A stretch of DNA of 64,000 nucleotides from Parcubacteria group bacterium (lineage in GTDB: Bacteria > Patescibacteriota > Patescibacteriia > UBA2169). The notes under the pieces were generated by a model that worked only from the letters and a program-made list of their open reading frames with translations, had not been told where the DNA came from and made no database searches. The stretch is from assembly GCA_016181765.1 (NCBI GenBank), contig JACOYR010000004.1, forward strand, positions 115,937-179,936, given 5' to 3'. This document shows, piece after piece, positions 21,582-55,338 of the stretch (position 1 is the first letter of the stretch; the number at the start of each line of letters is the position of its first letter). Position numbers and translations under genes: made by a program.

Positions 21582-22169
21582 ATGACCATCATCTTACCAA
21601 ACAAAAAACAGCAGCTGCTTGATTTTTTGAAATCATACGTCAAGGACCGGGGATACGCGCCCACGCTCTCGGAGATCGCGAAAAAATTCAAGGTCTCGTC
21701 CCTAGCTACGGTGCACGAGCACATGGCGTTTTTGGAGAAGCACGGGTTCATCAAGCGCACGGGCAACATCCAGTCCCGGGAACTTGAAATTGTGAGGAGC
21801 GGAAGCAATGTGGAACCAACCTTCCTGGAAGGCAGCATGCACTCCCTGCCCCTGGTTGGATTGATTACCGCAGGAGCGCCCATTGAGGCAGTGGAGAACC
21901 GCGAAGCGGAGATCGCGGTGCCCGCGGAGATTACGCGCGGCAGGCAGTGCTATATGGACGGGGATTTGGTGATTGTGGAAAAAACCGAATACGCCAAGAA
22001 CGGGGACATGGTGGTTGCGGTGCTGGATGATGGAACCGCGACTCTGAAGAAGTTCTACAAGGAAAAGAACTACGTGCGCCTTCAGCCCGCGAACGCCAAG
22101 TACCAACCCCTGATGGTTGAGAATGTGATCATTCGCGGCAGGGTGGTGGGGATTATCAGGAAGTACTAA
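21582..22169 (+). CDS. lexA: LexA-like repressor (wHTH plus S24 peptidase domain)
   Basis: N-terminal LexA DNA-binding domain (GYAPTLSEIAKKF), Ala-Gly site (ITAGAP), MDGDLVIV and Lys (TLKKFYK) of S24 fold. Confidence 0.8.
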   Translation: MTIILPNKKQQLLDFLKSYVKDRGYAPTLSEIAKKFKVSSLATVHEHMAFLEKHGFIKRTGNIQSRELEIVRSGSNVEPTFLEGSMHSLPLVGLITAGAPIEAVENREAEIAVPAEITRGRQCYMDGDLVIVEKTEYAKNGDMVVAVLDDGTATLKKFYKEKNYVRLQPANAKYQPLMVENVIIRGRVVGIIRKY

Positions 22170-22208
22170 ATTTTGGGTGCAAGCAGTTTTTTCTGCTATA
22201 ATTTAGAT

Positions 22209-23165
22209 ATGCCGAAAATACATAAAAAAAGAAAAACGGTACTGGAACTTTGCGCGGGCGGTGGTGGACAATTTTTAGGATTAGAAGGGGCGGGATTTGA
22301 TTGTGTCGGCGCTGTTGAAATAGAGGAAGAGTATTGCCGAACTCTTACGCACAACCGACCCGGCCTAAACGTTATAAATTACGATTTAAAGCAATTTAAT
22401 GCGAAAAATTTTTTAGGGGTTGATTTAGTCGCAGGCGGGGTTCCCTGTCCTCCATTTTCCATTGCGGGCAAACAGCTAGGACAAAAGGACGATAGAGATT
22501 TATTTCCCTATGCGCTCAAAATAATAGGGCAAGCCGACCCAAAAGCGGTATTGCTTGAAAATGTTCCCGGCCTGGCTTCGGCAAAATTTGCAACCTACAG
22601 AAGAAATATTCAAAAAAAATTAACTGATTTGGGTTATTGGTCTGATTGGAAAATATTAAATGCTTCCGATTTTGGGGTGCCGCAATTGAGGCCTAGATTT
22701 ATATTGGTGGCGGTAAAAAACGGATTAAAAAATTTTTTTGAATGGCCGAGGACTCTCTCAACTAAAGTTACGGTTGGAGAAGCCCTCTTTGATTTAATGT
22801 CAGCCAATGGCTGGACAGGCGCGCATAAGTGGTTGAAAAAAGCAAACAATGTCGGCCCAACCTTAGTGGGAGGTTCAAAAAAACACGGCGGGCCTGATTT
22901 GGGGCCAACACGAGCGCGAGAGCAATGGAAAAATTTGGGAGTTGACGGATTAGGCATTGCCGATTCTGCTCCGGAAATAAAATTTCCACATAACAAACTA
23001 CCAAGGTTGACCGTGCGCATGACTGCCCGTATCCAGGGCTTCCCGGATTCCTGGCATTTTCCGGGGCGAAAAACTTCATCATACAGGCAAATTGGCAACG
23101 CTTTTCCACCCGCAGTCGCCAAAGCAGTTGGGTTTAGAATCATCAAAGCCATCCAAACAACATGA
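22209..23165 (+). CDS. DNA (cytosine-5)-methyltransferase (type II R-M, M subunit)
   Basis: Motif I LELCAGGGG, motif IV GGVPCPPFS, motif VI ENVPGL; AT-rich island. Confidence 0.9.
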   Translation: MPKIHKKRKTVLELCAGGGGQFLGLEGAGFDCVGAVEIEEEYCRTLTHNRPGLNVINYDLKQFNAKNFLGVDLVAGGVPCPPFSIAGKQLGQKDDRDLFPYALKIIGQADPKAVLLENVPGLASAKFATYRRNIQKKLTDLGYWSDWKILNASDFGVPQLRPRFILVAVKNGLKNFFEWPRTLSTKVTVGEALFDLMSANGWTGAHKWLKKANNVGPTLVGGSKKHGGPDLGPTRAREQWKNLGVDGLGIADSAPEIKFPHNKLPRLTVRMTARIQGFPDSWHFPGRKTSSYRQIGNAFPPAVAKAVGFRIIKAIQTT

Positions 23166-23734
23166 AAAGAGACAGGGAGAAAGGATCAAAACAAAAAATT
23201 CTTGATTTCCTTACCGATAATATCGGGAAAGTCGTAAACTCAAAGGAAATTCAAGAGGCTTCTGGCTGGGCCGCTGAATGGGCACGGCGCGTCCGTGAGC
23301 TGCGCGATGAACAGGGGTATCAAATTCTGTCGCACAAAGACCGCGCTGATTTGAAGCCAGGACAGTACATAATGGCCACCAAAAAAAGAAAACCGGCTTT
23401 TGCTCGCGGCATTTCCAAGGAAACAAAAGCTATAGTGTTGGAAAGAAACGGTTTTACCTGTCAAAGCTGCGGCTTAGCAGCAGGCGATCCCGACCCTTTT
23501 CACACTGGCAGGACTATCCGCCTTACTATGGGCCATATTATTGATAAATCAAAAGGCGGTCCAGATTCTCCCGAAAATTTAAAAGCTATGTGTACAAACT
23601 GTAACGAAGGATTACAGAATGCCGCCCTACCAAAACCCAATACAGTCCAGCTTCTGGCGCAGGTCAGAAGAGGCACCATTGAGAGTCAACAAGCCGTTCT
23701 TGATTGGCTTATAAAAAAATACAAAAAGCATTAA
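23162..23734 (+). CDS. HNH endonuclease, probable cognate restriction enzyme (ATGA start/stop overlap with methyltransferase)
   Basis: CxxC...H-N..CxxC HNH motif (CQSCG...GHIIDKSKGG...NLKAMCTNCN) preceded by wHTH-like domain. Confidence 0.75.
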   Translation: MKRDREKGSKQKILDFLTDNIGKVVNSKEIQEASGWAAEWARRVRELRDEQGYQILSHKDRADLKPGQYIMATKKRKPAFARGISKETKAIVLERNGFTCQSCGLAAGDPDPFHTGRTIRLTMGHIIDKSKGGPDSPENLKAMCTNCNEGLQNAALPKPNTVQLLAQVRRGTIESQQAVLDWLIKKYKKH

Positions 23735-40061: not shown

Positions 40062-43000
40062 TTAGAGGCCTAAGAGTGATTTGATGGGCGCGAACACGCG
40101 GAACGGGTTAAAGCCGGATCCAGAGGAACCCCGCTTAGTGGAAGCTCCCTGCACGGTCCCGCAGTCAGCCGGGCAGGATGACGTGGTTTCTCCGGTGCCG
40201 CAGTATGCGTTGCCGCACGTTTCCGAGGTATAGGAACTACTCCCGCAGTCGCCCGGGCACTTGGAAGAATCTTCCCCGTTGCCGCAAACGCCATCGCAAC
40301 TCGGGCCGTAATCATAGCTGCCGCTTCCAGTGCTTCCACTGCTTCCGCAGTCGCTCCAGCACGACGTGGATGTTTCGCCGCTGTCGCACGCGCCATTTCC
40401 GCAGTATGATCCCGAACTTCCGCCCGTGGCGCCGGTGCTGGAACAGCCGGTTGCGGGCGTGGCGGCACAGGAATACAGGGTTCCGTTCGCGGTGTAGTAA
40501 TTGAGCATGGACGAATCAAAACAGTTGCCGTCCGAACCCATAGTGTGCCAGCCGCTCCCGTATTTGGTGTCACAACTAGAGGTTGTTGATGTCGTGCCGC
40601 CGGTGAATGCGGAACAGCCAGGGTCCGCCGCATCAATGAAGCCATCAGCATCATTATCAACGCCGTCCGCGCATTTGAGCTGCGTGTCTTCGTAGCTGCT
40701 CGCCGCCGTTCCGCACCCGGATGATGAGTAATAGCAGTAGCTCGTTGAACCACTGCTGGTACTGGCGTACCAGCAACAATTTGAGGCAGCGGTGCACGAC
40801 GCCTGGCCAGCATACGAACCGCATGAGCCATACTGGCCGCTTGAGCCGCCGCAGTCGCTTGGGCAGCTTGAGTACGATTCATTGGACTCGCACACGCCGT
40901 CGCTGTCGCAGAATGAGCCGCTTCCCCCGCTCGTGTACGCGGAACAGCCCGGGTCCGCCGCATCAATATAGCCATCAGCATCATTGTCAACGCCGTCCGC
41001 GCATTTGAGCTGTGTGTCTTCGTAGCCGCCGCTCGTGGTTCCCCCGCAATCAGCAGGGCACGACGTGGAAGATTCGCTGGAACCGCAGATGCTGTCCCCG
41101 CACGTGTCGGTCCTGCACGCCGTAGGGCAGCCCGTGCTGCTGTAGGTACAGCCACTCGGGCACTTTGAATAGGAGCACGAGTAGGAGCCCGTGTTGTTGT
41201 TGTACGCGTTGATGGGGCACACCCCGCCGGAAGAGAGGCAGCTCGCCGGGCACCCGGTTGAATCGTAGTTGCACCCATTCGGGCATGCCTTGTAGTTGCA
41301 CGTGGTTCCGGTGGTCTGGTTGTTGTACTGGTTCGCCGGGCACGAAGGGGCGGTGTAGCAGCCCGTGGTACAGCCGGTTGAATCATAGCTGCACCCTGAC
41401 GGGCACTTCTTGTAACTGCACGAGTAGCCGCTGGTATAGTCGTTAAACTCAGTTGCCGGGCACGAAGTTGTTGTGCCGGACTTGCAGTCGCTCGGGCAGG
41501 ACGACGTGGTTTCTCCGCTTCCGCAGAATCCATTGCCGCATGTCTCCTTTACTTCTACTTCACTGGCGCCAGAACAATCCGGAATGCCGAAGTTCCTCCA
41601 GTCTCCGTCATCCCCTGCGTTGGATTTCCAGGAAAAATTCGCTTTTGGAACCTTGGTGCACTGCGCGGCAACGCCTGCGATGAAGCTTATGTACTCGCTG
41701 TCCGTGCGGTTCAAAATGTATGAGGTTTCAGTTTGGCCGTCGCTGAACTTCCAGGTCTTGCTCACCCAATTCTTGCTGCCCGGGTCTTCTGGGGCTTTCT
41801 CCGGGGCTGTGCACTTGCCCAGGAACTGGTCGTAATAATCCCCCGGGGCGCAGGTTGGGGAGCAACCCTTGGCGCAGCCAAAATTATCGTACAAGCAGTA
41901 GCTTGAGCCGCTACACGAGGGCGTGCACGAGAGCGGGCAGTTGCCCACCACCGAACTGTCCTGCCTGCAGTACCCACTGTCGTCCCACACCCAGCCGCGC
42001 TCGCACGAGCCCTTGCTTGGTGGTACGTAATCACTGCTGTTCAGGCACTTCTTGATCTGCTGTGCCCAGAACTGGCCCTTGGCGCACTCCTGGATAAAGG
42101 TTCCGCACTGCCCAAAGTATTTAACCGCAACGCCGCGAGCGCGCGCCTTGCAGTCATTGTCATAGGTGGCGTTGTCGCTGCCGCACACCGGACTGTAGAC
42201 ATCCGGGCAACCAGTTCTTCCCGTTGACTGGATGCACTCGCCGAATCGGGCGCACCCCTGCGAATCTTTGACAATGTCGCGCACCTGCCCCTCGGGACAC
42301 CCGAGCGGCGATTGCGCCGAAAGGTCCGGGCAAATGGCTACCTGCTGTATGCACGAGGGCTGGCCGCAGGGATCCCCGGGCCGGGGTGGAACAGGCTGTT
42401 CTCCGGGATTGCACGCCCGCGGCGGATTGTAAACCGCCGGACAGATGAGCGTCTGTTCGCAATACCCTCGGCTTGAGTTCCACCGCTCAAAAGGACCGCA
42501 CTGCGCAAAACCAACCGGTGGACGGTAGTAGGGGTCAACCGCGCACGAAGTTCCATTCCAGTACTGGCCAGCTGCGCATGAAACACTCGCCAAGTCAATC
42601 TCATTTTGGTACACGCACTGGTTGCGCCCCTGGTCAAAAAAGCCGCCCGGGCCGCAATCCTTGAACGTGTGTTCAACCGTTGCCCACTCGCACCCCCGAA
42701 CCCCGGGGTTCGCCGTACAGTACTGCTCGCACTGCTCCGGGGTAGTGCACTTGCCGGCCAGGGGGTTGTTCTCTTTGAAATCTTTCCGCTCCCGCTCAAT
42801 GCGGTTGCGCTCCCGCACCAAGTCGTCCGCCAGGCGCTCTTTTTCGTGCCGCGCCTCCTGCTCCAAAAACGTCAGCTGTATCTGGCGGCACGCGCTGTCG
42901 CACCAGGGGTCATTTTGCATGCGAGCCTCAAAAATCCGCTTGCGCTCGCCAAACACCTCGTCAGACCGCGATACCTGATTATTGATTTTTTCTTCCCACA

Positions 43001-44948
43001 GCGCCTTTCGGGTTCCAAAGTCTTCCCAGGAAATATCGTTGAGCTTCTCAAAAAATGCCTCCTCTTCCTGGCGCTGGACACGGTCCACCTGGAAGTTCAC
43101 CTCCCGCTCTTCATAGTCCAGCGCGGCCCGCGCAATCTCCCGCTCGCGCTCAAACTTCTGCTGTTCAACCTTGCGGACCTTGAACTGCAAGGCATCCTGG
43201 AATCCGCTGTCGCGGGCCCTGATGTCGTTGATGACGAACTCCGGCACGTCAAAGAACCGCTCGTGGAACCGGTCAAACGCTGCCGGCTCGGAAACGTCCT
43301 GCATGAACACTTTGTATTGTTCCGTGTTCTTGCGCACGAATTGGTCCTGGAACTCATCTCCAAACTGCAGATCCGCAAGAATCGCCATGTCAGAGGGATC
43401 CAGGGTTGCCACCTGGTTCAAAAACCGGTCCCCTTGCCGGCGATACTGGCTCTCAAACTGCTGGGTCATGGCCTGCTCTATCTGGTCCAAGAACTCCCGC
43501 TTTGCCGGGTCGGCTTGAACATCCTGTTCAAGGGAAGCAATCAGCTTAAAGGTCTTTGGAGAGGGATTGTTCAAAAAGTCGTCAGAGAGTTTTTGAAACC
43601 TCGCTGCCTGGTCCTGGGACTCGGCATCCTTAAACCGCTGCTTGAACGCGTCAACCGAACGGCTGTGCACCCCCTCAACGAGCTTGAATTCCTCCGAATC
43701 GGCGCTCATGCGGTTCTTAAACTCATCAAGCACAACCAAGTCCGCAACATCGTCGGTATCAAAAGACCGAAAGAACCGGTCAGAAACCTCGGGGTCGTCA
43801 ATAAGGGAGAGCTTGTCCTCAAACTTGCGGACCGCAATTTCCTTGGCCTCTTCTATCTTTGCGAGGATGTCGTCCGAAATGCCGCTTGACCGCTTGATTT
43901 CTTCCAGGATCCCGAGGAGCCGCGTTTCATCAATGGCCGCGTGCTCCAGGTACTGGGAAAACTTCTGGCCGCGCACGGCCTCGGGAATGTTCTGGATGCG
44001 GATCTCAAACTTTTGGATGGTGTTCTTTTTGGCCTGCGCAATCGCGTCTTTAACCGTAGCCGGAGCGCTGTCCCGCATGGCCTCAAGGATTTCCAAATTC
44101 TTAAGCTCCTTAAACTCGGACCCGGCCTGCTTGTCAAAGGCGCGCGTCATGCGGACGCGGACCTGATCCGGCTCATCTTCCACTCCGGCCAAGAGCTCGG
44201 TAAAATTTCCAATGGTTTTTTCCTTGGCGTCCGAAACATGCGCCACCACCTGCTCAAGCCCGGCATCCGGCTCCTCGCCCGTATCCCGCGCAAGCTGGCG
44301 CGCTTTGACTGCCTCGTCCGAAATGTCCTCCAGCACCTGCCGGTGCTTGATCTGCTTGTCCGCCACCTCGTCCAGCACGCGCTCCACCTCAAGCGGGTTG
44401 TCGGCCTTGGCGCTCTTGAGACGGGCCGTGGTCGCCCGCACATCCTCAAACTTCTTCTCAAACCGATCAATGGCGCGGTTCAGCGCGCCCGGATCCACTT
44501 GCGAAACACCTCGCTCATCAACCATCTGCTTGACCTCGGAAAGCTCCTGGTTCGCGTGCTTGAACTTAAGCTCCGCGTCCGCGACCGAGTCAAAAGTGAA
44601 CGCCTCCTGGATGCCCCAGCCAAAACGCTTGAACACGTGCAGAGGGTTATCAGGCAGGATGCGCGCCTCGCTGGTTCCCAAATCTTGAAGGCTGACACTG
44701 AAGTCCTGCACCACCTCAAGCGGAGGCTCATTTGACTGGGCTGCGGTCTGGGTAGCGCCGTCAGAAACCGGTTCTTGAGTTGCAGATTCAGCATCGCCCG
44801 CAGCCTGGTCCTGTACTGCTTGGTCTTGCGCCCCCGCAATCCCAACAAACAAAAAAGCCGCTGACAACGCGGCTACGAAAACAGACAACAACGAAAATCG
44901 TGTTGTTTGGCGGTTTAAGCGTACACTACAATATGTGCCAACCCCCAT
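40062..44948 (-). CDS. Giant membrane-anchored surface protein (1628 aa): N-terminal TM, ~700-aa charged helical stalk, C-terminal mosaic of Cys-rich modules including a Kazal-like domain, tandem ~38-aa Cys repeats, Asp-rich Ca-binding-like motifs and CGNGxCxxGET..CPxDC repeats
   Basis: Uninterrupted ORF; CPDVYSPVCGSDNATYDNDCKARARGV matches Kazal consensus; KCADGVDNDADGYIDAADPGCS occurs twice; repeats CP..YN..TG..C.Y..CP.GC.YDSTGC three times. Confidence 0.7.
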   Translation of the reverse strand: MGVGTYCSVRLNRQTTRFSLLSVFVAALSAAFLFVGIAGAQDQAVQDQAAGDAESATQEPVSDGATQTAAQSNEPPLEVVQDFSVSLQDLGTSEARILPDNPLHVFKRFGWGIQEAFTFDSVADAELKFKHANQELSEVKQMVDERGVSQVDPGALNRAIDRFEKKFEDVRATTARLKSAKADNPLEVERVLDEVADKQIKHRQVLEDISDEAVKARQLARDTGEEPDAGLEQVVAHVSDAKEKTIGNFTELLAGVEDEPDQVRVRMTRAFDKQAGSEFKELKNLEILEAMRDSAPATVKDAIAQAKKNTIQKFEIRIQNIPEAVRGQKFSQYLEHAAIDETRLLGILEEIKRSSGISDDILAKIEEAKEIAVRKFEDKLSLIDDPEVSDRFFRSFDTDDVADLVVLDEFKNRMSADSEEFKLVEGVHSRSVDAFKQRFKDAESQDQAARFQKLSDDFLNNPSPKTFKLIASLEQDVQADPAKREFLDQIEQAMTQQFESQYRRQGDRFLNQVATLDPSDMAILADLQFGDEFQDQFVRKNTEQYKVFMQDVSEPAAFDRFHERFFDVPEFVINDIRARDSGFQDALQFKVRKVEQQKFEREREIARAALDYEEREVNFQVDRVQRQEEEAFFEKLNDISWEDFGTRKALWEEKINNQVSRSDEVFGERKRIFEARMQNDPWCDSACRQIQLTFLEQEARHEKERLADDLVRERNRIERERKDFKENNPLAGKCTTPEQCEQYCTANPGVRGCEWATVEHTFKDCGPGGFFDQGRNQCVYQNEIDLASVSCAAGQYWNGTSCAVDPYYRPPVGFAQCGPFERWNSSRGYCEQTLICPAVYNPPRACNPGEQPVPPRPGDPCGQPSCIQQVAICPDLSAQSPLGCPEGQVRDIVKDSQGCARFGECIQSTGRTGCPDVYSPVCGSDNATYDNDCKARARGVAVKYFGQCGTFIQECAKGQFWAQQIKKCLNSSDYVPPSKGSCERGWVWDDSGYCRQDSSVVGNCPLSCTPSCSGSSYCLYDNFGCAKGCSPTCAPGDYYDQFLGKCTAPEKAPEDPGSKNWVSKTWKFSDGQTETSYILNRTDSEYISFIAGVAAQCTKVPKANFSWKSNAGDDGDWRNFGIPDCSGASEVEVKETCGNGFCGSGETTSSCPSDCKSGTTTSCPATEFNDYTSGYSCSYKKCPSGCSYDSTGCTTGCYTAPSCPANQYNNQTTGTTCNYKACPNGCNYDSTGCPASCLSSGGVCPINAYNNNTGSYSCSYSKCPSGCTYSSTGCPTACRTDTCGDSICGSSESSTSCPADCGGTTSGGYEDTQLKCADGVDNDADGYIDAADPGCSAYTSGGSGSFCDSDGVCESNESYSSCPSDCGGSSGQYGSCGSYAGQASCTAASNCCWYASTSSGSTSYCYYSSSGCGTAASSYEDTQLKCADGVDNDADGFIDAADPGCSAFTGGTTSTTSSCDTKYGSGWHTMGSDGNCFDSSMLNYYTANGTLYSCAATPATGCSSTGATGGSSGSYCGNGACDSGETSTSCWSDCGSSGSTGSGSYDYGPSCDGVCGNGEDSSKCPGDCGSSSYTSETCGNAYCGTGETTSSCPADCGTVQGASTKRGSSGSGFNPFRVFAPIKSLLGL

Positions 44949-48435: not shown

Positions 48436-49200
48436 CTAGGTTTTTTTTGACGAGAGCACCAGCGCCTGGTTCGCAAACGAGTATGCGGTCCGGGTGCTTG
48501 AAAATCCGGCTTCAGAAAGCAGCTCAACAAACCGCGCTTCCGGCAAAAACTGGTACTCGCCCTTTTTCCCTTTTTTTTGTATCTTGAGCGCGTACCGCAG
48601 GATCGCCGGGCCGTAGAAGAGGTTGTAGTACTTGCGCGGATCAAAAATTTCGCGCCACGAAGCCGCGAACACTCTGGCGAAGTTGACCCGGTATTTTGGC
48701 GTGCTCCACACGAACTGTCCGCCAGGCTTGAGGATGCGGCGCACTTCGCGGAAGATGGCGCGCAAAGACTCTATGCCCTTATTGCCCTCGTGCTCCTCAA
48801 TGTAGGTTAACACCAGGCTTGCGGTTACTCCATCAAACGAATTATCTGCAAACGGCAGGCGTTTTGAGAGGTTATGTTTGACTAAGGTGATGTGGTGCTC
48901 GCTCGGCGCGGGCTCAAGCGCGGGAAGGCGCTTGCGGAGATGCTCAAGCATTACGTCCGTGAGGTCCAGAGCCACAATCTCTTTAACGCGGCCACCTGAC
49001 TTATTCCAAATGAGGTCAACTAAGGCACCGGAGCCGGTTCCCAAATCAAGCCACCGCTCCCCAGGTTTCGGGTCTATGTATTCTGCTATCTGTTTGAGCA
49101 GTTTTTTGTACGGAGTTGCATCCTCAAGGTACGGATAGATTGACCCATACTTGGGCCCCCAAAACTGTTCGTCTGTGGTGAGATGTTGTTGTGTAGCCAT
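48436..49200 (-). CDS. Class I SAM-dependent methyltransferase
   Basis: Motif I LDLGTGSGALV. Confidence 0.8.
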   Translation of the reverse strand: MATQQHLTTDEQFWGPKYGSIYPYLEDATPYKKLLKQIAEYIDPKPGERWLDLGTGSGALVDLIWNKSGGRVKEIVALDLTDVMLEHLRKRLPALEPAPSEHHITLVKHNLSKRLPFADNSFDGVTASLVLTYIEEHEGNKGIESLRAIFREVRRILKPGGQFVWSTPKYRVNFARVFAASWREIFDPRKYYNLFYGPAILRYALKIQKKGKKGEYQFLPEARFVELLSEAGFSSTRTAYSFANQALVLSSKKT

Positions 49201-49304
49201 GCGTTGATTATACTAAAAATACCTCTTTTGGGCAAAATAAAACGCCCGCCTCCCCAGGTGAGAAGCGAGCGGCCTCGATAGATAGATAGAAGCATCCTCA
49301 TCGG

Positions 49305-49991
49305 TCAAGCGAGCAATTGCGCGTCAAGGCGCCTGGCTTCCTTCTTGAAAAATGCCTTGATGGTTTTCCAGTTTGCATCAAAGTAGGTCTCTGGCATGGG
49401 GTCATTCTCCGCATCATCAAAGTACGCAAGGCTCTTGATGAAGTGCGGAACGTTGTGCTCCTGATCGGGATACTGGTTCGGGACGCGCTTGAGAACGCCA
49501 ATGAGCGGCTCCCGATGCTTCGCGTACCAGTACAAATCAACAAAATCCCGCTTGCGGCCGCGCTGGGAAAGGGCAATGATTTTCATGACCGCAATGTCTT
49601 CCGGAACCAGCATGCGCACGTTGCCGCATGCGACGAGCCGAGGCGACGGGCGGAAAAAGGGATAGGCGATAAAACTCATTTTCACGCCTTTCAGCGTTCC
49701 GTAGAGCGTTCCGTTTTCCTGGTACGTAGTTTTCCACTGTTCAGTTGCGACAAGCGACCGCTCCAGCAAGGCTTTATTGAACTCGGCGTACGGGATGAAG
49801 AAATCAAGATCAACGGATTTCCGGTGCCCGACCTGCAGCGCGAGCGCGGTGCCGCCAGCGAGGTACCAGTCTGTGTTTTTGAGCAGCGGCAACTCGGCGA
49901 GGTACAAAAATGCCCGCCCGGTTGCGCGGGGGAGCGCATCAAGATGCAAATCATCGGGATTGGCTTTTTCTACCGAAAGACGAGCGACCAT
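49305..49991 (-). CDS. AbiEii/DUF1814-family nucleotidyltransferase (type IV TA toxin-like), copy 1
   Basis: YLAGGTALALQVGHRKSVDLDFF motif. Confidence 0.65.
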   Translation of the reverse strand: MVARLSVEKANPDDLHLDALPRATGRAFLYLAELPLLKNTDWYLAGGTALALQVGHRKSVDLDFFIPYAEFNKALLERSLVATEQWKTTYQENGTLYGTLKGVKMSFIAYPFFRPSPRLVACGNVRMLVPEDIAVMKIIALSQRGRKRDFVDLYWYAKHREPLIGVLKRVPNQYPDQEHNVPHFIKSLAYFDDAENDPMPETYFDANWKTIKAFFKKEARRLDAQLLA

Positions 49992-50248
49992 AGTGATCGT
50001 GATTTATCGTGAAGCACACGCGATTTTTTAACAACCTTACTGATTCGCCTTGGCGTGTAGTATCGCCGCATCCATTTGACTTCGTTTGTCCTGCCAAAAT
50101 CCAAAATCCGCTCAATGATGTAGGTTGAGTGCTTCTTGGGATCAATCTTTTTGGGGTCAACGTCCCAGAACAAAGACTGCCTGAATGCGATGACCGGCTT
50201 TTGGCGTTTCGCCTTGCTGGTTTTCTTTTTTATAACCGGCATATACAT
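49970..50248 (-). CDS. Small basic protein (92 aa), probable partner/antitoxin-like of AbiEii copy 1
   Basis: Overlaps downstream AbiEii start by 22 nt. Confidence 0.35.
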   Translation of the reverse strand: MYMPVIKKKTSKAKRQKPVIAFRQSLFWDVDPKKIDPKKHSTYIIERILDFGRTNEVKWMRRYYTPRRISKVVKKSRVLHDKSRSLWSLVFR

Positions 50249-50320
50249 TCAGTATAACACAAAATAGAGCTCTCTGCAAAGGTTTTCAAGGGAATGGCGC
50301 TGTGCTCCATCCTTAGGCTG

Positions 50321-51016
50321 TTACTTATCGCTCTCAAGACGCGCCTTTAGCAAAAAAATGGTTTCCGAGCGGAGTTTTGCCCGGGCCCAGTCTTTCTGGC
50401 TCTCAGTCAAAAATTCGCCGAGGCCGTCCAAGATGCTCCGATTGTTCATGCGCTCCAAGAGCTCAATGCACTTCTGCGCCGTTTCCGCGTACGGCATGCC
50501 TGCTCTCTTTTCCACGATCTTTCTGTTAATCGGCCAGTTGTTTTTTGCAAAAAAATACACGTCAAAAACATCCCGGCTCGTTTTGCCGAGGCGCTCGTAC
50601 AAAGCCATGAGCTTATTGGCAAACATATCTTCGGCAACCTGCACCAGCATGGAGATGCCGAGCAGCGTTTTGAGTTCATAACGGGAACCGAATGTCCTGC
50701 GGTTGACCTCAATCTTTATGTTTTGGGCCCTGGCATCGTAGGAAAGAATGATGATTGCGCTGTAGCGCTTGAGCCGCGACTCCCGTATGTCGCCGTAGCC
50801 GCGGGCAATCGTTTCCAGTTTCTCAAATACTTCTTTTTCTTTGCGTTCGTCCAAGAGATCAAAATCAAGATCAACCGAATAACGGTTCAAATGGTAAAAC
50901 AGGAGCGCCGCGGTTCCGCCTTTAAAGCCGAGGTGCGGGGCAATGGCTGTGTCAGTGTATATGTCCTTGAGCATCCGGAGCTGTATGTTTTTGTGTTTTG
51001 AATAATCAAATGCCAT
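50321..51016 (-). CDS. AbiEii/DUF1814-family nucleotidyltransferase, copy 2
   Basis: GFKGGTAALLFYHLNRYSVDLDFD motif. Confidence 0.7.
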   Translation of the reverse strand: MAFDYSKHKNIQLRMLKDIYTDTAIAPHLGFKGGTAALLFYHLNRYSVDLDFDLLDERKEKEVFEKLETIARGYGDIRESRLKRYSAIIILSYDARAQNIKIEVNRRTFGSRYELKTLLGISMLVQVAEDMFANKLMALYERLGKTSRDVFDVYFFAKNNWPINRKIVEKRAGMPYAETAQKCIELLERMNNRSILDGLGEFLTESQKDWARAKLRSETIFLLKARLESDK

Positions 51017-51019
51017 AGG

Positions 51020-51616
51020 TTATGCGGCGCTCTTGCAGTGTTTGAAATATTCGGCAACCTTCTTTGCCATGCTCTTGTTGTTGTAGATGGGCAAAATCTC
51101 AAAAACCCTATCCCAGTCCAAGGGATCCAAATGATCAAAGTGGTACTCTTTGCTTGCATACACCCGGTCTAAAAATGCCCTCTCTTTTTCGGCAATGGCG
51201 TAGCCTGCGGCATGGTCAATGCCGATGGTATTGGACAGCACATAATCTTTCATCCGTATGAATGCGATTTTTTGATCACCCACGCGTATCTCTCTTGAAA
51301 CGTATGACGCGACAAAAATAGTATCGTAATACTGGAACGTAATGCCGACGCGAGCCAAAACAGTCTCAAAGCTGACATACGAGGGCGTGTAGATCCTTGT
51401 CGCCAGTTCAAATGCGTCATACTTTTTATCTTTGGCATACAAGCCGCGGCGCACCCTAACCAGTTTTCCTGCCGCAACGTATTTATTCAACCGCGCGCTG
51501 ATGGCGCTCTCTTTTTCCTCGCCCCACAACAAAGCGGCATCTTTGGTGGAAAAGACGGTCCTGGGTGATCTTAACAAAATCCCCAAGTATTCCCCTTTTT
51601 TAGGTTTTTTATCCAT
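51020..51616 (-). CDS. AbiEi-family antitoxin/transcriptional regulator (wHTH)
   Basis: N-terminal AbiEi_4-like LVRVRRGLYA motif; 4-nt gap to AbiEii. Confidence 0.65.
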   Translation of the reverse strand: MDKKPKKGEYLGILLRSPRTVFSTKDAALLWGEEKESAISARLNKYVAAGKLVRVRRGLYAKDKKYDAFELATRIYTPSYVSFETVLARVGITFQYYDTIFVASYVSREIRVGDQKIAFIRMKDYVLSNTIGIDHAAGYAIAEKERAFLDRVYASKEYHFDHLDPLDWDRVFEILPIYNNKSMAKKVAEYFKHCKSAA

Positions 51617-51714
51617 TTTTGTACTGGAAATTACCTTAAAAGTAATTTACAGTTCATATAGTAACATAAATCAATATCAAAAGCAAGTGTGCCGCATCTA
51701 AAATTCAAGAAAAA

Positions 51715-53316
51715 TCAAAACAAGGTTCCGGCTTTGGCCGACCCTCCTGCTTCGGCATGCGCCCAGGCCGCGAGGAAGCGGTTCAAAAATTCCTGGGACC
51801 CGTCCCGGTCTTCCAAAAACTGCGAGAGCACCAGGGCTACGGAAATGACGATGTGGTACTCCTCCATGCCGCGCTGTTTGGCTTTTGCCCAGGCCGGGTG
51901 CAGGGTGTTGACGGTAAGCACATCATCAATGATGCGGCCCAACGCCATGTCCGGAGCATCCACCATGTCCGCCAGCTCAATGGCAAGTCCGCTGGTCCTG
52001 GCGCGGATTTCGCGCTTTTTGGCTGCATCCGCAACGCCAAAAGGCGGCCTGCTTTTCCCTGCATCCTGGCCGGAAGCGCCGTGGCGGCCGCCTGCTTTTT
52101 CCTCTGAAGCGCCCGATTGTTCTTCCTCTCCTAGCACAGCTTTCTTGGACGCGGCTTGGGGCTTCTCTTTTCTGCCAAGCGTTTTTGCGCGCCCGGCGCC
52201 GATGAGGCCTTCCAACTCCGGGAAATCGCCAAGCAAGCCATCTAGCGCGCCGCTGATGACGCGCCGGAGCGGCCTGACCAGCTGTTCCGGAGACGCGGAT
52301 GCGGACGGCGCGCGCTCCCCCAGGCGCTCCAGAATCAGCACCACTGCCTCTTGCACGGCCTTGCGGAATTTGTAGTATTTTTTTAAGGACCCGGAATCAG
52401 TCAAAAAATCATTCTTGTTGGTGGTAAGAATTTCCGACAGCCCGGGAATCTCCACGACCCCGGAAAGGCTGTCCGCGTGGCTGGGAATGATCCCCAGCCA
52501 CTCCCAGCCGCCCTTGATGATTTTGCCGAACGTGGAAACGTACAGCCCGGCCGGCAGGGACGTGGCAATGATTTTTTTGCCCAAAAAATTCTCCAGCCAA
52601 TTTCCCTGCATGTCGGTTTTGGCCAGAAACCCGATGCCGGCCGGACGCCGGGTTTTGCCAACGCTCACCTTGAACCAGTGCTGAAGCGCGTCCTGCCCGG
52701 ACTCCGGCAGTTCAATCTTTTTTCCGTTGATAAAAAAATAAATAGGCTTTTTGTAGAAATAACGCAGGAACTCGGCGTGCATGGTCTGGTTCAGCAGAGG
52801 ATAAAAATGCCTGATAACGGTGCGCCGCACAAAATCCGGCTTGAGAAGATGCGACTGGCTGTCGCTGAAATGCATGCTGACCGAAGTGCCGCGGGGTCCG
52901 GAAACAGCGCCCGAAAAAGACACGAATTTCCACGGCGCCCGGTACGCATTTGACAGGCGCCACTCGGTTGCGCACCGCGAACCATACCCGCCCTTGCTCT
53001 CGGTAACCACCCGCTCGGCCAAAAGCAAGGAGAGCTTTGCTCCCACGCCGGCGAATCCGATGCCCGCGCCCCGGCGCTTGGCCGTGGACGCGATATTGTG
53101 GTACTCCCGCAGAACAGAACGCTTCATGCCTTGGCCGTCGTCCGCGCACCGCAGAACTTTGCTGTCGGCGTCAACCGAAAAATGAATGGAGCTGGCCTTG
53201 CTGTCCAGCGCGTTTGCGATAAGCTCGGTTACAATAACCTCTTCCAGGGACGAAGCGTACGCGTCCCGGATATCCTCCAGAAGGTGTTTTAGATTGACGC
53301 GGGTTTCGTTGGGCAT
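51715..53316 (-). CDS. Standalone GHKL-family ATPase (HATPase_c_3 / MORC-like Bergerat fold) with long C-terminal region
   Basis: Bergerat motifs ELIANALD (N box), DDGQGM (G1), GFAGVGAK (G2); no kinase H-box. Confidence 0.6.
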   Translation of the reverse strand: MPNETRVNLKHLLEDIRDAYASSLEEVIVTELIANALDSKASSIHFSVDADSKVLRCADDGQGMKRSVLREYHNIASTAKRRGAGIGFAGVGAKLSLLLAERVVTESKGGYGSRCATEWRLSNAYRAPWKFVSFSGAVSGPRGTSVSMHFSDSQSHLLKPDFVRRTVIRHFYPLLNQTMHAEFLRYFYKKPIYFFINGKKIELPESGQDALQHWFKVSVGKTRRPAGIGFLAKTDMQGNWLENFLGKKIIATSLPAGLYVSTFGKIIKGGWEWLGIIPSHADSLSGVVEIPGLSEILTTNKNDFLTDSGSLKKYYKFRKAVQEAVVLILERLGERAPSASASPEQLVRPLRRVISGALDGLLGDFPELEGLIGAGRAKTLGRKEKPQAASKKAVLGEEEQSGASEEKAGGRHGASGQDAGKSRPPFGVADAAKKREIRARTSGLAIELADMVDAPDMALGRIIDDVLTVNTLHPAWAKAKQRGMEEYHIVISVALVLSQFLEDRDGSQEFLNRFLAAWAHAEAGGSAKAGTLF

Positions 53317-53334
53317 ACGGCGCGCGGTCCCAAT

Positions 53335-53763
53335 TCAAGAGAGGTGCGTAAGAATCTGCTTCTGAAATTCCTCCAGTTCCCCTATCCGGGTGGTGAGAAT
53401 CTCGTACACCTTTTTCCGGTCAATCGTGCCGTACTCGTGCACCAGAATATTGCGCAGACCCACCATCTTCGTAAGCGCATCCGCCAGAGATTCAGAAATA
53501 ATGCCCTGGCCGCGCAAAAGCGAGACAGCCTCGTAGTTGTCATCCGGGCGCTGTATGCCTTGGTCAATAATCACCAGATGCGCGCTGTCAATGATTGATT
53601 GCGCCGAGAGCTGGAGGTAGCGCTCCGCGTTTCCGAACAAATGAAAATCAGCAAGAAACTGCGCCTCGCTTTTTGCTTCTGACCGGAGCGTCTTGAGGTA
53701 TGATATGTACTCCTTTAAACGTTCCAGTTTTTCAAAAATTTTCTGCCTGCCGAGCTTGGTCAT
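53335..53763 (-). CDS. hepT: HepT-family RNase toxin (DUF86) of type VII TA system
   Basis: RX4HXY motif (LRNILVHEY). Confidence 0.8.
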   Translation of the reverse strand: MTKLGRQKIFEKLERLKEYISYLKTLRSEAKSEAQFLADFHLFGNAERYLQLSAQSIIDSAHLVIIDQGIQRPDDNYEAVSLLRGQGIISESLADALTKMVGLRNILVHEYGTIDRKKVYEILTTRIGELEEFQKQILTHLS

Positions 53764-54170
53764 ACGGATTGCGCCAGGCGGGCGCGGTACTGCGCAAGCA
53801 CCGGCTGGTAATCAAAGTACTCGTTGAGCGCCTTTAATTCAAAATCAATCCGCGCTTCCCGGGACCCCTCAAACGCCACAATACCCTCCCGCATTGCCAC
53901 GTACCGCAAAAACGGCGCAGCCGTATTGAGCACCACCACGTCGGCCTCGCTCCCCAGGGAGCGGGTGAACTGCTCAAGAAGCTCCAGACGGATGTCAAAA
54001 AAACGCGCGCGGAACGCAGGGTCCAGGTACACGGCTAGGTCAACATCACTTCCTTTGCGGCTGCCGCCGGTTGCGGCAGAGCCGAACACATAGCCGAATA
54101 AAACGTCTTTTCGGGCGGCCAGCACCCGTGCCGCGGCATCGGTTATTGTTGCGATATCGCTCTGTTCCAT
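53760..54170 (-). CDS. mntA: MntA-family minimal nucleotidyltransferase antitoxin
   Basis: GSAATGGSRKGSDVDLAV (GSx10DxD) motif; 4-nt overlap with hepT. Confidence 0.8.
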   Translation of the reverse strand: MEQSDIATITDAAARVLAARKDVLFGYVFGSAATGGSRKGSDVDLAVYLDPAFRARFFDIRLELLEQFTRSLGSEADVVVLNTAAPFLRYVAMREGIVAFEGSREARIDFELKALNEYFDYQPVLAQYRARLAQSV

Positions 54171-54258: not shown

Positions 54259-55056
54259 CTATGTGCGGCGCGGTTTCCAGGCCGGGAATGTTGTGCCGAT
54301 TTGCTTGCCCCGCAGAATAGGCATAATCACCTCTTTGCCGGGGCGCGCGATATGCGCGGTGATGCCCGCTTTCTGCAGGCGGTCCGCAACCTTAAGTTTT
54401 GAACTCATGCCGGTCGGGCGGGCGGACGCATGGTCGCGCACCATACTCCAAACGGCTTTGGTAACGCGCGGGATAACCGGAATCGGGTCGCCCAGCGGCT
54501 TGCCCGAGGGACTCATTTCGCACACGCCGGGCACGTCCGTGAACAGAAACACGCGTTTGGCCTTCATTGCCCGGGCAACGCGGCACGCGAGCTGGTCATT
54601 GTCGCCTTTCTCGTTAATGTATGCCTTCATCTCCTCCGCGGAACGGGTATCGTCTTCGTTGATGATGGGCACGCCGCCGCACCTCGCGAACCGCTCCAAG
54701 AATGCAATGGACTCTGCGGCGGTTGACCCCCTTCCGAAATCCGCGTGCGTGCGCAACACCTGTCCCGCAAAAATTCCGCGCCTGGCGAATGCTTCAATCC
54801 ATGCCTGCACAATGGTCGGCTGGCCGACAGATGCCGCCATTTGCTTGCGCCAAACCTCGCCTCCCGCAGGTACCAAGTGCGCCTCGGCGCGCATGCCCGC
54901 GAGTGTGGCGCCGGACGTGATAATAATCACCCGGTACCCGAGCGCGTGCGCGTGCGCGACCTCATCCACGATCCAGCCAATCACCTTGCGGCGCACGGTA
55001 CCGGCCGGAAAAACCAGCGCATTGGAACCAATTTTGATTATGATGAGCTTGCGCAT
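54259..55056 (-). CDS. proB: Glutamate 5-kinase (ProB, no PUA domain)
   Basis: AAK-family motifs LIIIKIGSNAL, GDNDQLA, TGMSSKL. Confidence 0.75.
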   Translation of the reverse strand: MRKLIIIKIGSNALVFPAGTVRRKVIGWIVDEVAHAHALGYRVIIITSGATLAGMRAEAHLVPAGGEVWRKQMAASVGQPTIVQAWIEAFARRGIFAGQVLRTHADFGRGSTAAESIAFLERFARCGGVPIINEDDTRSAEEMKAYINEKGDNDQLACRVARAMKAKRVFLFTDVPGVCEMSPSGKPLGDPIPVIPRVTKAVWSMVRDHASARPTGMSSKLKVADRLQKAGITAHIARPGKEVIMPILRGKQIGTTFPAWKPRRT

Positions 55057-55338
55057 CACTTTTGCCTCCCTTGCGTATGAATGAACGATTCCGCACATAC
55101 CAAAAAACCAGCCCGGAAGCTGGTTTGCAAGGTAGTGCGTGGGTTACGAAATACAAATTATGCCAACTTCCGGTCGGGTTGTTTCGGCTGCGGCGGGGTT
55201 GTGATAATCGTGTATTCCATAGGTGGTGGAAGTATAGCAGTAAAGAGGTTATGCTGCAAGTAGAAACCACATAATTAATTAGCCTTGCTTTTTTACATGG
55301 AAGCGGTACTCTATAATAGAATATACCTCAATACCTAT

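Follow-up and report, generated by a model that had tools for sequence, protein, structure and literature searches.

A probable accessory islet of toxin–antitoxin modules around a rare GHKL-type ATPase gene in a Parcubacteria group bacterium

Introduction

When an ATPase gene lies between toxin–antitoxin (TA) modules, is it a working part of one of them or a neighbor in the same accessory region? This question is raised by a cluster of seven genes at positions 49305–54170 of a 64,000-nucleotide (nt) stretch of contig JACOYR010000004.1 from a Parcubacteria group bacterium (the whole stretch is referred to below as the window). The cluster contains an MntA–HepT pair, an AbiEi–AbiEii pair, a second AbiEii-family gene with a small partner of the DUF6922 family, and a gene for a GHKL-type ATPase. 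A first-pass annotation had described it as a phage-defense island in which the ATPase is a candidate new component. We analyzed the proteins of the cluster, the distribution of the GHKL family and the genomic neighborhoods of its members. The GHKL family is rare, horizontally spread and non-syntenic, and its genes are found beside several types of TA modules more often than expected by chance. On balance, we lean toward reading the region as a small accessory islet that holds three autonomous TA modules and an orphan conflict-associated ATPase, the latter not being a known part of any of them.

Results

Distribution of the GHKL family and its genomic contexts

The family of the GHKL protein was delimited using a profile search at E <= 1e-30, which identified 218 cluster representatives (50%-identity clusters) among 1.84 billion; in species genomes, 189 matches were found among 185,579. 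Full-length members are approximately 500–540 amino acids (aa) long, and there are no longer fused forms among the 218 representatives. The family is therefore rare, compact and patchy. Its members share 45–82% identity with the window protein across many lineages of Patescibacteria and 37–43% identity in approximately ten other phyla, among them Chloroflexi, Nitrospirae, Omnitrophota, Acidobacteriota, Brocadiia, Gemmatimonadetes, Eisenbacteria and Dependentiae. A tblastn search against 50,697 phage and 72,556 plasmid records produced no match, nor was a copy found in IMG/VR. With no tRNA gene, integrase or flanking direct repeats at the islet either, a mobile-element origin of the GHKL gene was rejected.

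The genomic contexts of the family were collected from 80 species-genome and 80 metagenome loci, and removal of duplicates at 95% GHKL identity left 125 loci (designated below by L numbers). Among the first 83 loci, 143 immediate neighbors were assigned to 136 Pfam families, none of which has more than five members, and the PADLOC matches among the neighbors are scattered (AbiEi, 3; mad2, 3; SoFic, 2; several PDC candidates, 2 each). Eight loci that were looked up individually have varied neighbors, including Phd/PIN, BrnT/CopG, a serine recombinase, TraG/relaxase, type I restriction-modification (RM) genes and PIF1-like helicases, as well as purely housekeeping genes. Clustering of all open reading frames (ORFs) within 4 kb revealed no conserved partner in the GHKL clade to which the window protein belongs.

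A partner gene is present in more distant clades. At 28 of the 125 loci (L049–L056, L063, L064, L071, L073, L079, L082, L084, L089 and others; for example, L049:7518–7967), the GHKL gene is directly followed by a gene for a protein of approximately 149 aa (range, 141–162 aa), mostly overlapping it by a few nucleotides, and the two genes form a predicted two-gene operon. This partner occurs only where the GHKL protein has 44% identity or less to the window protein, and it is absent from the window and its clade. It has no Pfam or PDB relative and no STAS match.

Toxin–antitoxin genes are enriched directly beside GHKL genes

Relatives of AbiEii, AbiEi, DUF6922, MntA and HepT were located in all loci using local hidden Markov models built from the window proteins. 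Distances were measured from the GHKL gene, or from the unit of GHKL and 149-aa genes, and the counts were normalized for the sequence available in each bin. Within 0–750 nt, there are 17 AbiEii- or MntA-family genes in 15 of the 125 loci, corresponding to 0.099 genes per kb. Between 0.75 and 5 kb, there are 7 such genes, at 0.008–0.013 per kb. The near-to-far rate ratio is 9.2 (binomial p = 2e-7, 125 non-redundant loci). An earlier test of the first data set, which was slot-based and cruder, had found 9 of 14 modules adjacent to GHKL, versus 3.3 expected (p = 4e-4). Other types of TA modules are also directly adjacent (PIN modules at four loci, BrnTA at a single locus), and approximately 84% of GHKL loci possess no adjacent TA module. 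Thus, the co-occurrence with AbiE or HepT/MntA, which the first-pass annotation had proposed to check across genomes, is real, but it is TA-general rather than specific, facultative rather than obligate, and variable in orientation.

The arrangements illustrate this variability. In the window, mntA-hepT precedes the GHKL gene with an 18-nt gap, whereas L085 has the reverse order, GHKL-mntA-hepT, with a 15-nt gap; in L056 and L156, mntA follows the GHKL and 149-aa genes at distances of 60 and 3 nt, respectively. The GHKL gene is followed by abiEi-abiEii in four loci with GHKL identities of 39–100%, immediately in the window, L009 and L023, and after the 149-aa gene in L159. The order DUF6922-abiEii-GHKL is found in L123 and L125, and the module lies on the opposite strand in L047, L062 and L159. 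MNT–HepT pairs were confirmed by Pfam in L020, L062 and L085. Overall, this pattern resembles clustering in islands, or co-transfer, more than it does a fixed operon.

Two further groups of genes were noted within 4 kb of GHKL genes. Large N6-adenine methylases or type IIG-like proteins are encoded at nine loci, including L011, L025, L059, L068, L070, L077, L084 and L089, and PIF1-like helicases at six (L003, L012, L026, L059, L061 and L066). Together they constitute a weaker second association of the GHKL family with DNA-directed conflict genes.

Domain architecture of the GHKL protein

The gene at 51715–53316 had been annotated as a standalone GHKL ATPase, and the profile and motif analyses agree with this assignment. 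The protein matches HATPase_c_3 with 41.1 bits (cut-off, 25), and its motifs I–III, E31xxxN35xxD38, D59xGxG (D59/G61/G63) and G87xxGxG (G87–G92), are intact and invariant in 30 homologues. Beyond these motifs, the aligned homologues share an invariant GKxIKGGWEW element and, toward the C-terminus, residues N470, H473, W476 and H488. The N-terminal Bergerat fold and a transducer domain extend to approximately residue 335, followed by a helical segment and low-complexity linker (approximately 336–420) and by a conserved C-terminal domain (421–533). The transducer is a second alpha/beta domain with a conserved basic residue, which places the protein in the S5-transducer subgroup. The closest folds are those of MORC3, TRAP1 and MutL. 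In sequence, the N-domain is most similar to Hsp90 and sacsin, and Hsp90 N-domains are the only sequence-level relatives with solved structures (E = 2e-7). For the C-terminal domain, Foldseek gave no significant match, and there is no confident relative. Judged from its sequence, the ATPase is catalytically intact and combines GHKL and S5-transducer domains in the manner of the MORC/Hsp90/MutL type. By analogy with this fold, it would most likely form a dimer that clamps nucleic acid or a client protein in an ATP-driven way.

Several known GHKL proteins were considered as possible identities and rejected. With the HtpG/Hsp90 model NF003555, the protein obtains 14.7 bits (cut-off, 371), and its score for the sacsin-domain model is also under the cut-off. 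The match to the MutL model TIGR00585 has 26 bits (cut-off, 180) and covers only residues 28–67. The GhXhhpXXRhl signature of MORC proteins sensu Iyer et al. 2008 was found by regular expression in 0 of 30 aligned members. The sole match in PADLOC-DB v2.0.0 is to TmtA (PDLC03971, E = 8e-6), and it is local, pairing residues 28–92 with positions 57–129 of a 1782-position profile, that is, 65 residues of the ATP-binding fold. CapK differs in its GHKL subtype; in addition, the GHKL domain of the window protein is N-terminal, and no STAS or helix-turn-helix (HTH) domain was found with Pfam. Finally, GHKL-Shedu (VcSduA) was rejected because a DUF4263 nuclease domain and fusions of any kind are absent from the family.

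Organization of the islet

The proteins of the locus were assigned to families using Pfam, PADLOC (PADLOC-DB v2.0.0) and NCBIfam profiles, and motifs were checked by regular expressions. The ORF listing contains seven consecutive minus-strand genes exactly as in the first-pass annotation, which had placed them between a gene for an S-adenosylmethionine-dependent methyltransferase and proB; the Methyltransf_11 and AA_kinase matches of the flanking proteins agree with these boundaries (Table 1). The same arrangement is present in six further contigs from related samples that carry an identical GHKL protein, as far as each short contig extends.

Table 1. Genes, sites and other annotated features of the window (positions are those of the window)
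Feature	Position	Strand	Description
mntA	53760–54170	minus	136 aa; antitoxin (minimal nucleotidyltransferase) of type VII TA pair
hepT	53335–53763	minus	142 aa; HEPN RNase toxin of type VII TA pair
GHKL plus S5-transducer ATPase gene, orphan	51715–53316	minus	533 aa; HATPase_c_3, E = 2e-10
abiEi	51020–51616	minus	198 aa; winged HTH (wHTH) antitoxin/repressor, type IV TA/abortive infection (Abi); PADLOC PDLC02255
abiEii-1	50321–51016	minus	231 aa; DUF1814 nucleotidyltransferase toxin; PADLOC PDLC02324
DUF6922 gene	49970–50248	minus	92 aa; PF21956, E = 2e-19
abiEii-2	49305–49991	minus	228 aa; short AbiEii-family nucleotidyltransferase; PF08843, E = 3.5e-19
Flanking Methyltransf_11 protein gene	48436–49200	minus	Pfam
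Flanking AA_kinase (proB-like) protein gene	54259–55098	minus	Pfam
Terminator-like hairpin after proB-like gene, upstream islet boundary	54223–54196	minus	12-bp stem
Promoter-like site upstream of mntA	54207–54179	minus	TTGAGC-17-TATGAT with TG extension; overlaps upstream hairpin
AT-rich spacer between GHKL gene and abiEi	51617–51714	minus	98 nt; perfect 7-bp inverted repeat AAATTAC-N7-GTAATTT
Terminator-like hairpin after abiEii-2, downstream islet boundary	49243–49271	minus	12-bp stem, 8 GC pairs, then T-run
Putative shadow ORF	49317–50012	plus	231 aa
lexA-like gene	21582–22169	plus	LexA_DNA_bind and Peptidase_S24
C5 cytosine DNA methylase gene	22173–23165	plus	PF00145, E = 4e-69; GC 0.44
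HNH endonuclease gene	23162–23734	plus	Overlaps C5 methylase gene
DUF6998 protein gene	1099–1545	minus	GC of 414–1545 approximately 0.40
Unannotated protein gene	414–1124	minus	236 aa
Long ORF	40062–44948	minus	1628 aa; only match DUF5667, N-terminal

Consensus matches to promoters and terminators suggest three transcription units, mntA-hepT-GHKL, abiEi-abiEii and DUF6922-abiEii. In the first unit, mntA and hepT overlap by 4 nt, and hepT is separated from the GHKL gene by 18 nt. Co-transcription of the three genes is probable because this gap is short and has no intervening terminator, and because a promoter-like site lies upstream of mntA. A gap of 98 nt separates the GHKL gene from abiEi, which is 3 nt from abiEii-1. 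After a further gap of 72 nt, the DUF6922 gene overlaps abiEii-2 by 22 nt; additional promoter-like sites were found upstream of the DUF6922 gene in a consensus scan. A plus-strand ORF runs almost exactly antiparallel to abiEii-2; since the AbiEii domain is encoded in the minus-strand frame, this plus-strand ORF was regarded as a shadow.

The description of the whole island as AT-richer than its flanks applies to part of it. The DUF6922 gene (GC content, 0.455), abiEi (0.464), abiEii-1 (0.493) and hepT (0.503) are indeed low in GC, whereas the GHKL gene (0.584), mntA (0.589) and abiEii-2 (0.549) are close to the window value of 0.556.

The MntA–HepT pair

The presence of a canonical HepT/MntA pair with Rx4HxY and GSx10DxD motifs was confirmed. 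HepT matches the NF047751 equivalog model with 106.8 bits (cut-off, 60) and PF01934 with E = 1.2e-27, and MntA matches the NF047752 equivalog model with 81.2 bits (cut-off, 60), as well as Polbeta and NTP_transf_2 of Pfam. Both motifs are intact by regular expression: R104-x4-H109-x-Y111 of HepT, within RNILVHEY at residues 104–111, and G30-S-x10-D42-x-D44 of MntA, GSAATGGSRKGSDVD at residues 30–44. By homology and conserved motifs, MntA would adenylylate the tyrosine of the HepT Rx4HxY motif and thereby silence the HEPN RNase, according to the mechanism described for this system (PMC7641770). This pair and the AbiEi–AbiEii pair are new members of known families.

The AbiEi–AbiEii pair was exchanged in place

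AbiEi matches the PADLOC model over its full length (E = 5.7e-57), and its wHTH region (residues 21–61) matches AbiEi_4 of Pfam with 23.7 bits, slightly under the 25-bit cut-off. Against the NCBIfam equivalog TAA_AbiEi it scores 36 bits, below the cut-off of 150; it is a member of a different AbiEi subfamily. Its partner AbiEii-1 matches PADLOC PDLC02324 with E = 3.1e-75 and also PF08843, and carries the nucleotidyltransferase (NTase) motif GGTAALLFYHLNRYSVDLDF at residues 33–52, in agreement with the catalytic pattern hG[GS]...DhDh. For both proteins of this pair, the PADLOC models match at full length; for the GHKL protein, no PADLOC model matches beyond the 65 residues mentioned above. AbiEi would repress the operon via its wHTH domain and counteract the DUF1814 nucleotidyltransferase toxin. 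The spacer between the GHKL gene and abiEi, with its inverted repeat, may contain the abiE promoter and an operator for AbiEi, since autoregulation of AbiEi through inverted repeats has been published (PMC7319586).

The closest relative with genomic context, L009, has the same gene order as the window (GHKL, AbiEi, AbiEii, DUF6922, AbiEii-2). Identity between the two loci is 82% for GHKL, 86% for DUF6922 and 93% for the N-terminus of AbiEii-2, but only 32% for AbiEi and 30% for AbiEii. The AbiE cassette was thus exchanged in place, because the gene order is kept at 82% GHKL identity while the AbiE pairs are only approximately 30% identical. In comparison, the identities between L009 and L023 are 50% for GHKL, 47% for AbiEi and 54% for AbiEii, so that at these two loci the AbiE divergence tracks that of GHKL. 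The AbiE pair of the window has a GC content of 0.46–0.49, versus 0.58 for the GHKL gene, and AbiEii-1 belongs to a very abundant subfamily with approximately 7000 close relatives and 72–82% identity across several Patescibacteria lineages. Given this composition and this abundance, the most plausible reading is that a compositionally foreign AbiE cassette recently took over the site of an older AbiE pair in the window. On both sides, the outer flanks of L009 are unlike those of the window, with ThiF and glutamate dehydrogenase genes upstream and a CopG-like gene and an unrelated ORF downstream.

DUF6922 replaces AbiEi as the partner of a short AbiEii clade

The first-pass annotation had proposed two AbiEi–AbiEii-like modules. 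Both AbiEii proteins are present and one of them has an AbiEi partner; the other is paired with a DUF6922 protein (PF21956), for which no AbiEi match was found in Pfam, PADLOC or NCBIfam, so that the pair at 49305–50248 lacks a partner of the AbiEi family. AbiEii-2 carries the NTase motif GGTALALQVGHRKSVDLDF and shares the GG-x-DLDF pattern with AbiEii-1 (both by regular expression), but the two proteins are only 28% identical over 133 aa.

The DUF6922 loci examined were those of the window, L009, L039/L125, L047, L123, L097 (Peregrinibacteria), L098 and L099/L100. At every one of them, the DUF6922 gene is directly followed by a short AbiEii gene (approximately 206–230 aa), with an overlap of 11–28 nt. 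Pfam confirmed the pairs in L039 and L047. They span several Patescibacteria lineages, and several are embedded among housekeeping genes. DUF6922 and AbiEii thus form a conserved overlapping pair in which DUF6922 stands in place of AbiEi, a variant of AbiE. Because it is the conserved overlapping upstream partner of the short AbiEii clade, DUF6922 is probably a new type of antitoxin for DUF1814 toxins. No paper within the searched literature mentions DUF6922, which now has a genomic context as the partner of this clade. In L009 (11593–11790), only a 65-aa ORF is left of AbiEii-2, with 93% identity to the N-terminus of its window counterpart, and DUF6922 is intact; this toxin is apparently decaying beside a retained DUF6922 gene.

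Other features of the window

Outside the islet, a lexA-like gene is directly followed by genes for a C5 cytosine DNA methylase and an HNH endonuclease, and the latter two look like a type II RM pair of foreign composition. Near the start of the window, the DUF6998 gene and the overlapping gene for an unannotated protein look recently acquired, judged by their GC content relative to 0.556 for the window. A very large ORF of 1628 aa has a DUF5667 match at its N-terminus and no other match (Table 1).

Discussion

In the reading toward which we lean, TA cassettes would accumulate around the GHKL gene or travel with it, and the GHKL protein is not taken as a subunit of AbiE or HepT/MntA. The description of the region as a phage-defense island holds insofar as the TA and abortive infection modules are real and lie in an accessory islet with hairpins at its boundaries, flanks that are not conserved in the closest relative, and an exchanged AbiE pair. 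We regard the role of the GHKL protein as a defense component as tentative, because its association with TA genes is non-specific and non-obligate, gene order and strand vary, no partner dominates, and no PADLOC model matches it beyond part of its ATP-binding fold.

Several points weigh against the islet reading. The neighbor statistics were obtained by crude gene calling (longest ORFs) on phylogenetically non-independent loci, of which the window and L009 share ancestry, and the promoter and terminator calls are consensus matches only. The tight same-strand spacing in the window, L085, L156 and the four GHKL–AbiE loci could reflect true functional coupling. Finally, the first 20 N-terminal residues of the GHKL protein and many of its motifs are conserved across phyla, a pattern seldom expected of immune proteins, which evolve fast, and in line with a conserved core activity.

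The best-surviving alternative, which we still consider rather unlikely, is that the flanking TA modules have a functional third partner in the GHKL protein, either an Hsp90/sacsin-like chaperone or a MORC-like sensor, which would control the release of interchangeable toxins (HepT, AbiEii, VapC) in the manner of SecB-type toxin–antitoxin–chaperone (TAC) systems or of sacsin, which combines Hsp90-like modules and HEPN in one protein. In its favor, TA genes are enriched 9-fold directly beside the GHKL unit, and the short same-strand junctions at the window, L085, L156 and L056 suggest co-transcription in distant genomes. Moreover, the order of GHKL followed by AbiEi–AbiEii recurs at four loci, and the exchanged AbiE cassette gave way to another AbiE cassette and was not lost. 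The proximity of the N-domain to Hsp90 and sacsin points in the same direction, as do the published GHKL–HEPN precedents, sacsin and paraMORC–Ymh fusions (PMC3710099). However, some 84% of the family loci have no TA module next to them, and the adjacent modules belong to unrelated TA families, lie upstream or downstream, and are on the opposite strand in three loci, which fits an insertion hotspot or island better than an operon. These TA families are also self-sufficient in published work, and none of the 218 representatives is a GHKL–TA domain fusion.

A wider formulation extends this idea to the family as a whole, which would be a dedicated TA-associated ATPase, a sensor or chaperone hub with interchangeable cassettes (MNT–HEPN, AbiE, DUF6922–AbiEii, VapBC and BrnTA) and, in other phyla, with the 149-aa partner. 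We hold this to be unlikely. If true, it would describe a modular three-part conflict or defense system of an undescribed kind and provide a prokaryotic precedent for the combination of Hsp90-like and HEPN domains in sacsin.

We consider a housekeeping-type role quite improbable. The GHKL protein would then serve as a chaperone or in DNA maintenance, comparable to a compact Hsp90 or MutL for reduced genomes, and TA modules would simply insert alongside, for example in terminator-proximal intergenic regions. In agreement with such a function, conservation between lineages of Patescibacteria is very high (45–82%), the N-terminal strap and motifs are invariant, the GC content is typical of the host, and no copies were found on phages, plasmids and IMG/VR contigs. 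It would also fit purely housekeeping loci such as L007, where the gene lies beside riboflavin synthase and a carbohydrate kinase, and subclades of Chloroflexi and Nitrospirae with lineage-level synteny to MgsA or a cation-efflux gene. A housekeeping gene is nevertheless hard to reconcile with a family of 218 clusters and 189 species-genome matches that is patchy across phyla, or with neighborhoods that differ even at 82% GHKL identity. The curated HtpG and MutL models score far under their cut-offs, and the neighbors are often RM methylases (9 loci), PIF1-like helicases (6 loci), a serine recombinase or conjugation genes. Juxtaposition by chance is disfavored as very improbable. TA modules are very abundant in Patescibacteria, as the close relatives of AbiEii-1 illustrate, but a uniform background does not predict the drop in sequence-normalized density from 0.099 to approximately 0.01 per kb past 750 nt (p = 2e-7).

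Under the preferred reading as an accessory islet, the three TA modules are themselves routine. The in-place cassette swap, the adjacency statistics and the DUF6922 pairing are new; they are computational results from uncultured organisms. The exchange of 30%-identical AbiE pairs between genomes whose flanking genes are 82–93% identical cleanly illustrates how cassettes can turn over at a fixed site of a reduced genome from the candidate phyla radiation (CPR). If the adjacency of GHKL genes to TA modules in distant phyla is functional, TA and abortive-infection biology would gain an ATP-driven regulator. Since CPR organisms are hard to work with, the homologues from Chloroflexi, Nitrospirae and Omnitrophota offer a practical entry point.

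Comparison with known systems

The MntA–HepT pair agrees with the type VII system (Yao et al. 2020, PMC7641770) in its equivalog matches, in both motifs and in its overlapping genes with the antitoxin first. The canonical system is a two-gene module, whereas here the gene for the 533-aa GHKL protein follows after 18 nt with no terminator. The pair at 50321–51616 corresponds to type IV AbiE (Dy et al. 2014, PMC3985639), being bicistronic, with an upstream AbiEi that has a wHTH, a DUF1814 AbiEii with an intact motif and, in the upstream spacer, an inverted repeat that may serve as an operator. The second AbiEii, in contrast, is short and divergent and is partnered by the 92-aa DUF6922 protein.

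As a member of the GHKL–S5 group, the ATPase resembles prokaryotic MORC/paraMORC proteins, which were described in RM contexts (Iyer, Abhiman & Aravind 2008, PMC2292703), and the modules of Hsp90 and sacsin; sacsin and some paraMORCs have been linked to HEPN domains (PMC3710099). Unlike MORC/paraMORC proteins, the family has neither the GhXhhpXXRhl signature nor a conserved helicase, nuclease or methylase partner; it is nearer to Hsp90 and sacsin in its N-domain, and its recurrent neighbors are TA modules rather than RM operons.

CapK–CapS are regulators of immune operons, in which CapK has an HTH-STAS-GHKL layout with a C-terminal GHKL domain of the anti-sigma-kinase type (Chambers et al. 2026, PMC13373217). 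The likeness lies in a GHKL protein that is followed by a small putative DNA-binding partner beside diverse conflict systems, with which the GHKL and 149-aa pair of the distant clade may be compared. The GHKL domain studied here is instead N-terminal, of the Hsp90/MORC type with an S5 transducer and with no STAS or HTH domain detected, and the 149-aa partner likewise has no STAS match.

In relation to Hsp90/HtpG and the sacsin SRR, the GHKL protein is approximately 100 aa shorter than HtpG, has a low-complexity linker between its middle and C-terminal domains, and ends in a C-terminal domain with no significant Foldseek match. In TAC systems, whose chaperones are SecB-like, three genes strictly form one operon and the antitoxin carries a chaperone-addiction tail, whereas in the GHKL family gene order and strand vary and most members have no TA neighbor. 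What the two have in common is a single accessory family of chaperone-like ancestry that stands beside several unrelated TA families.

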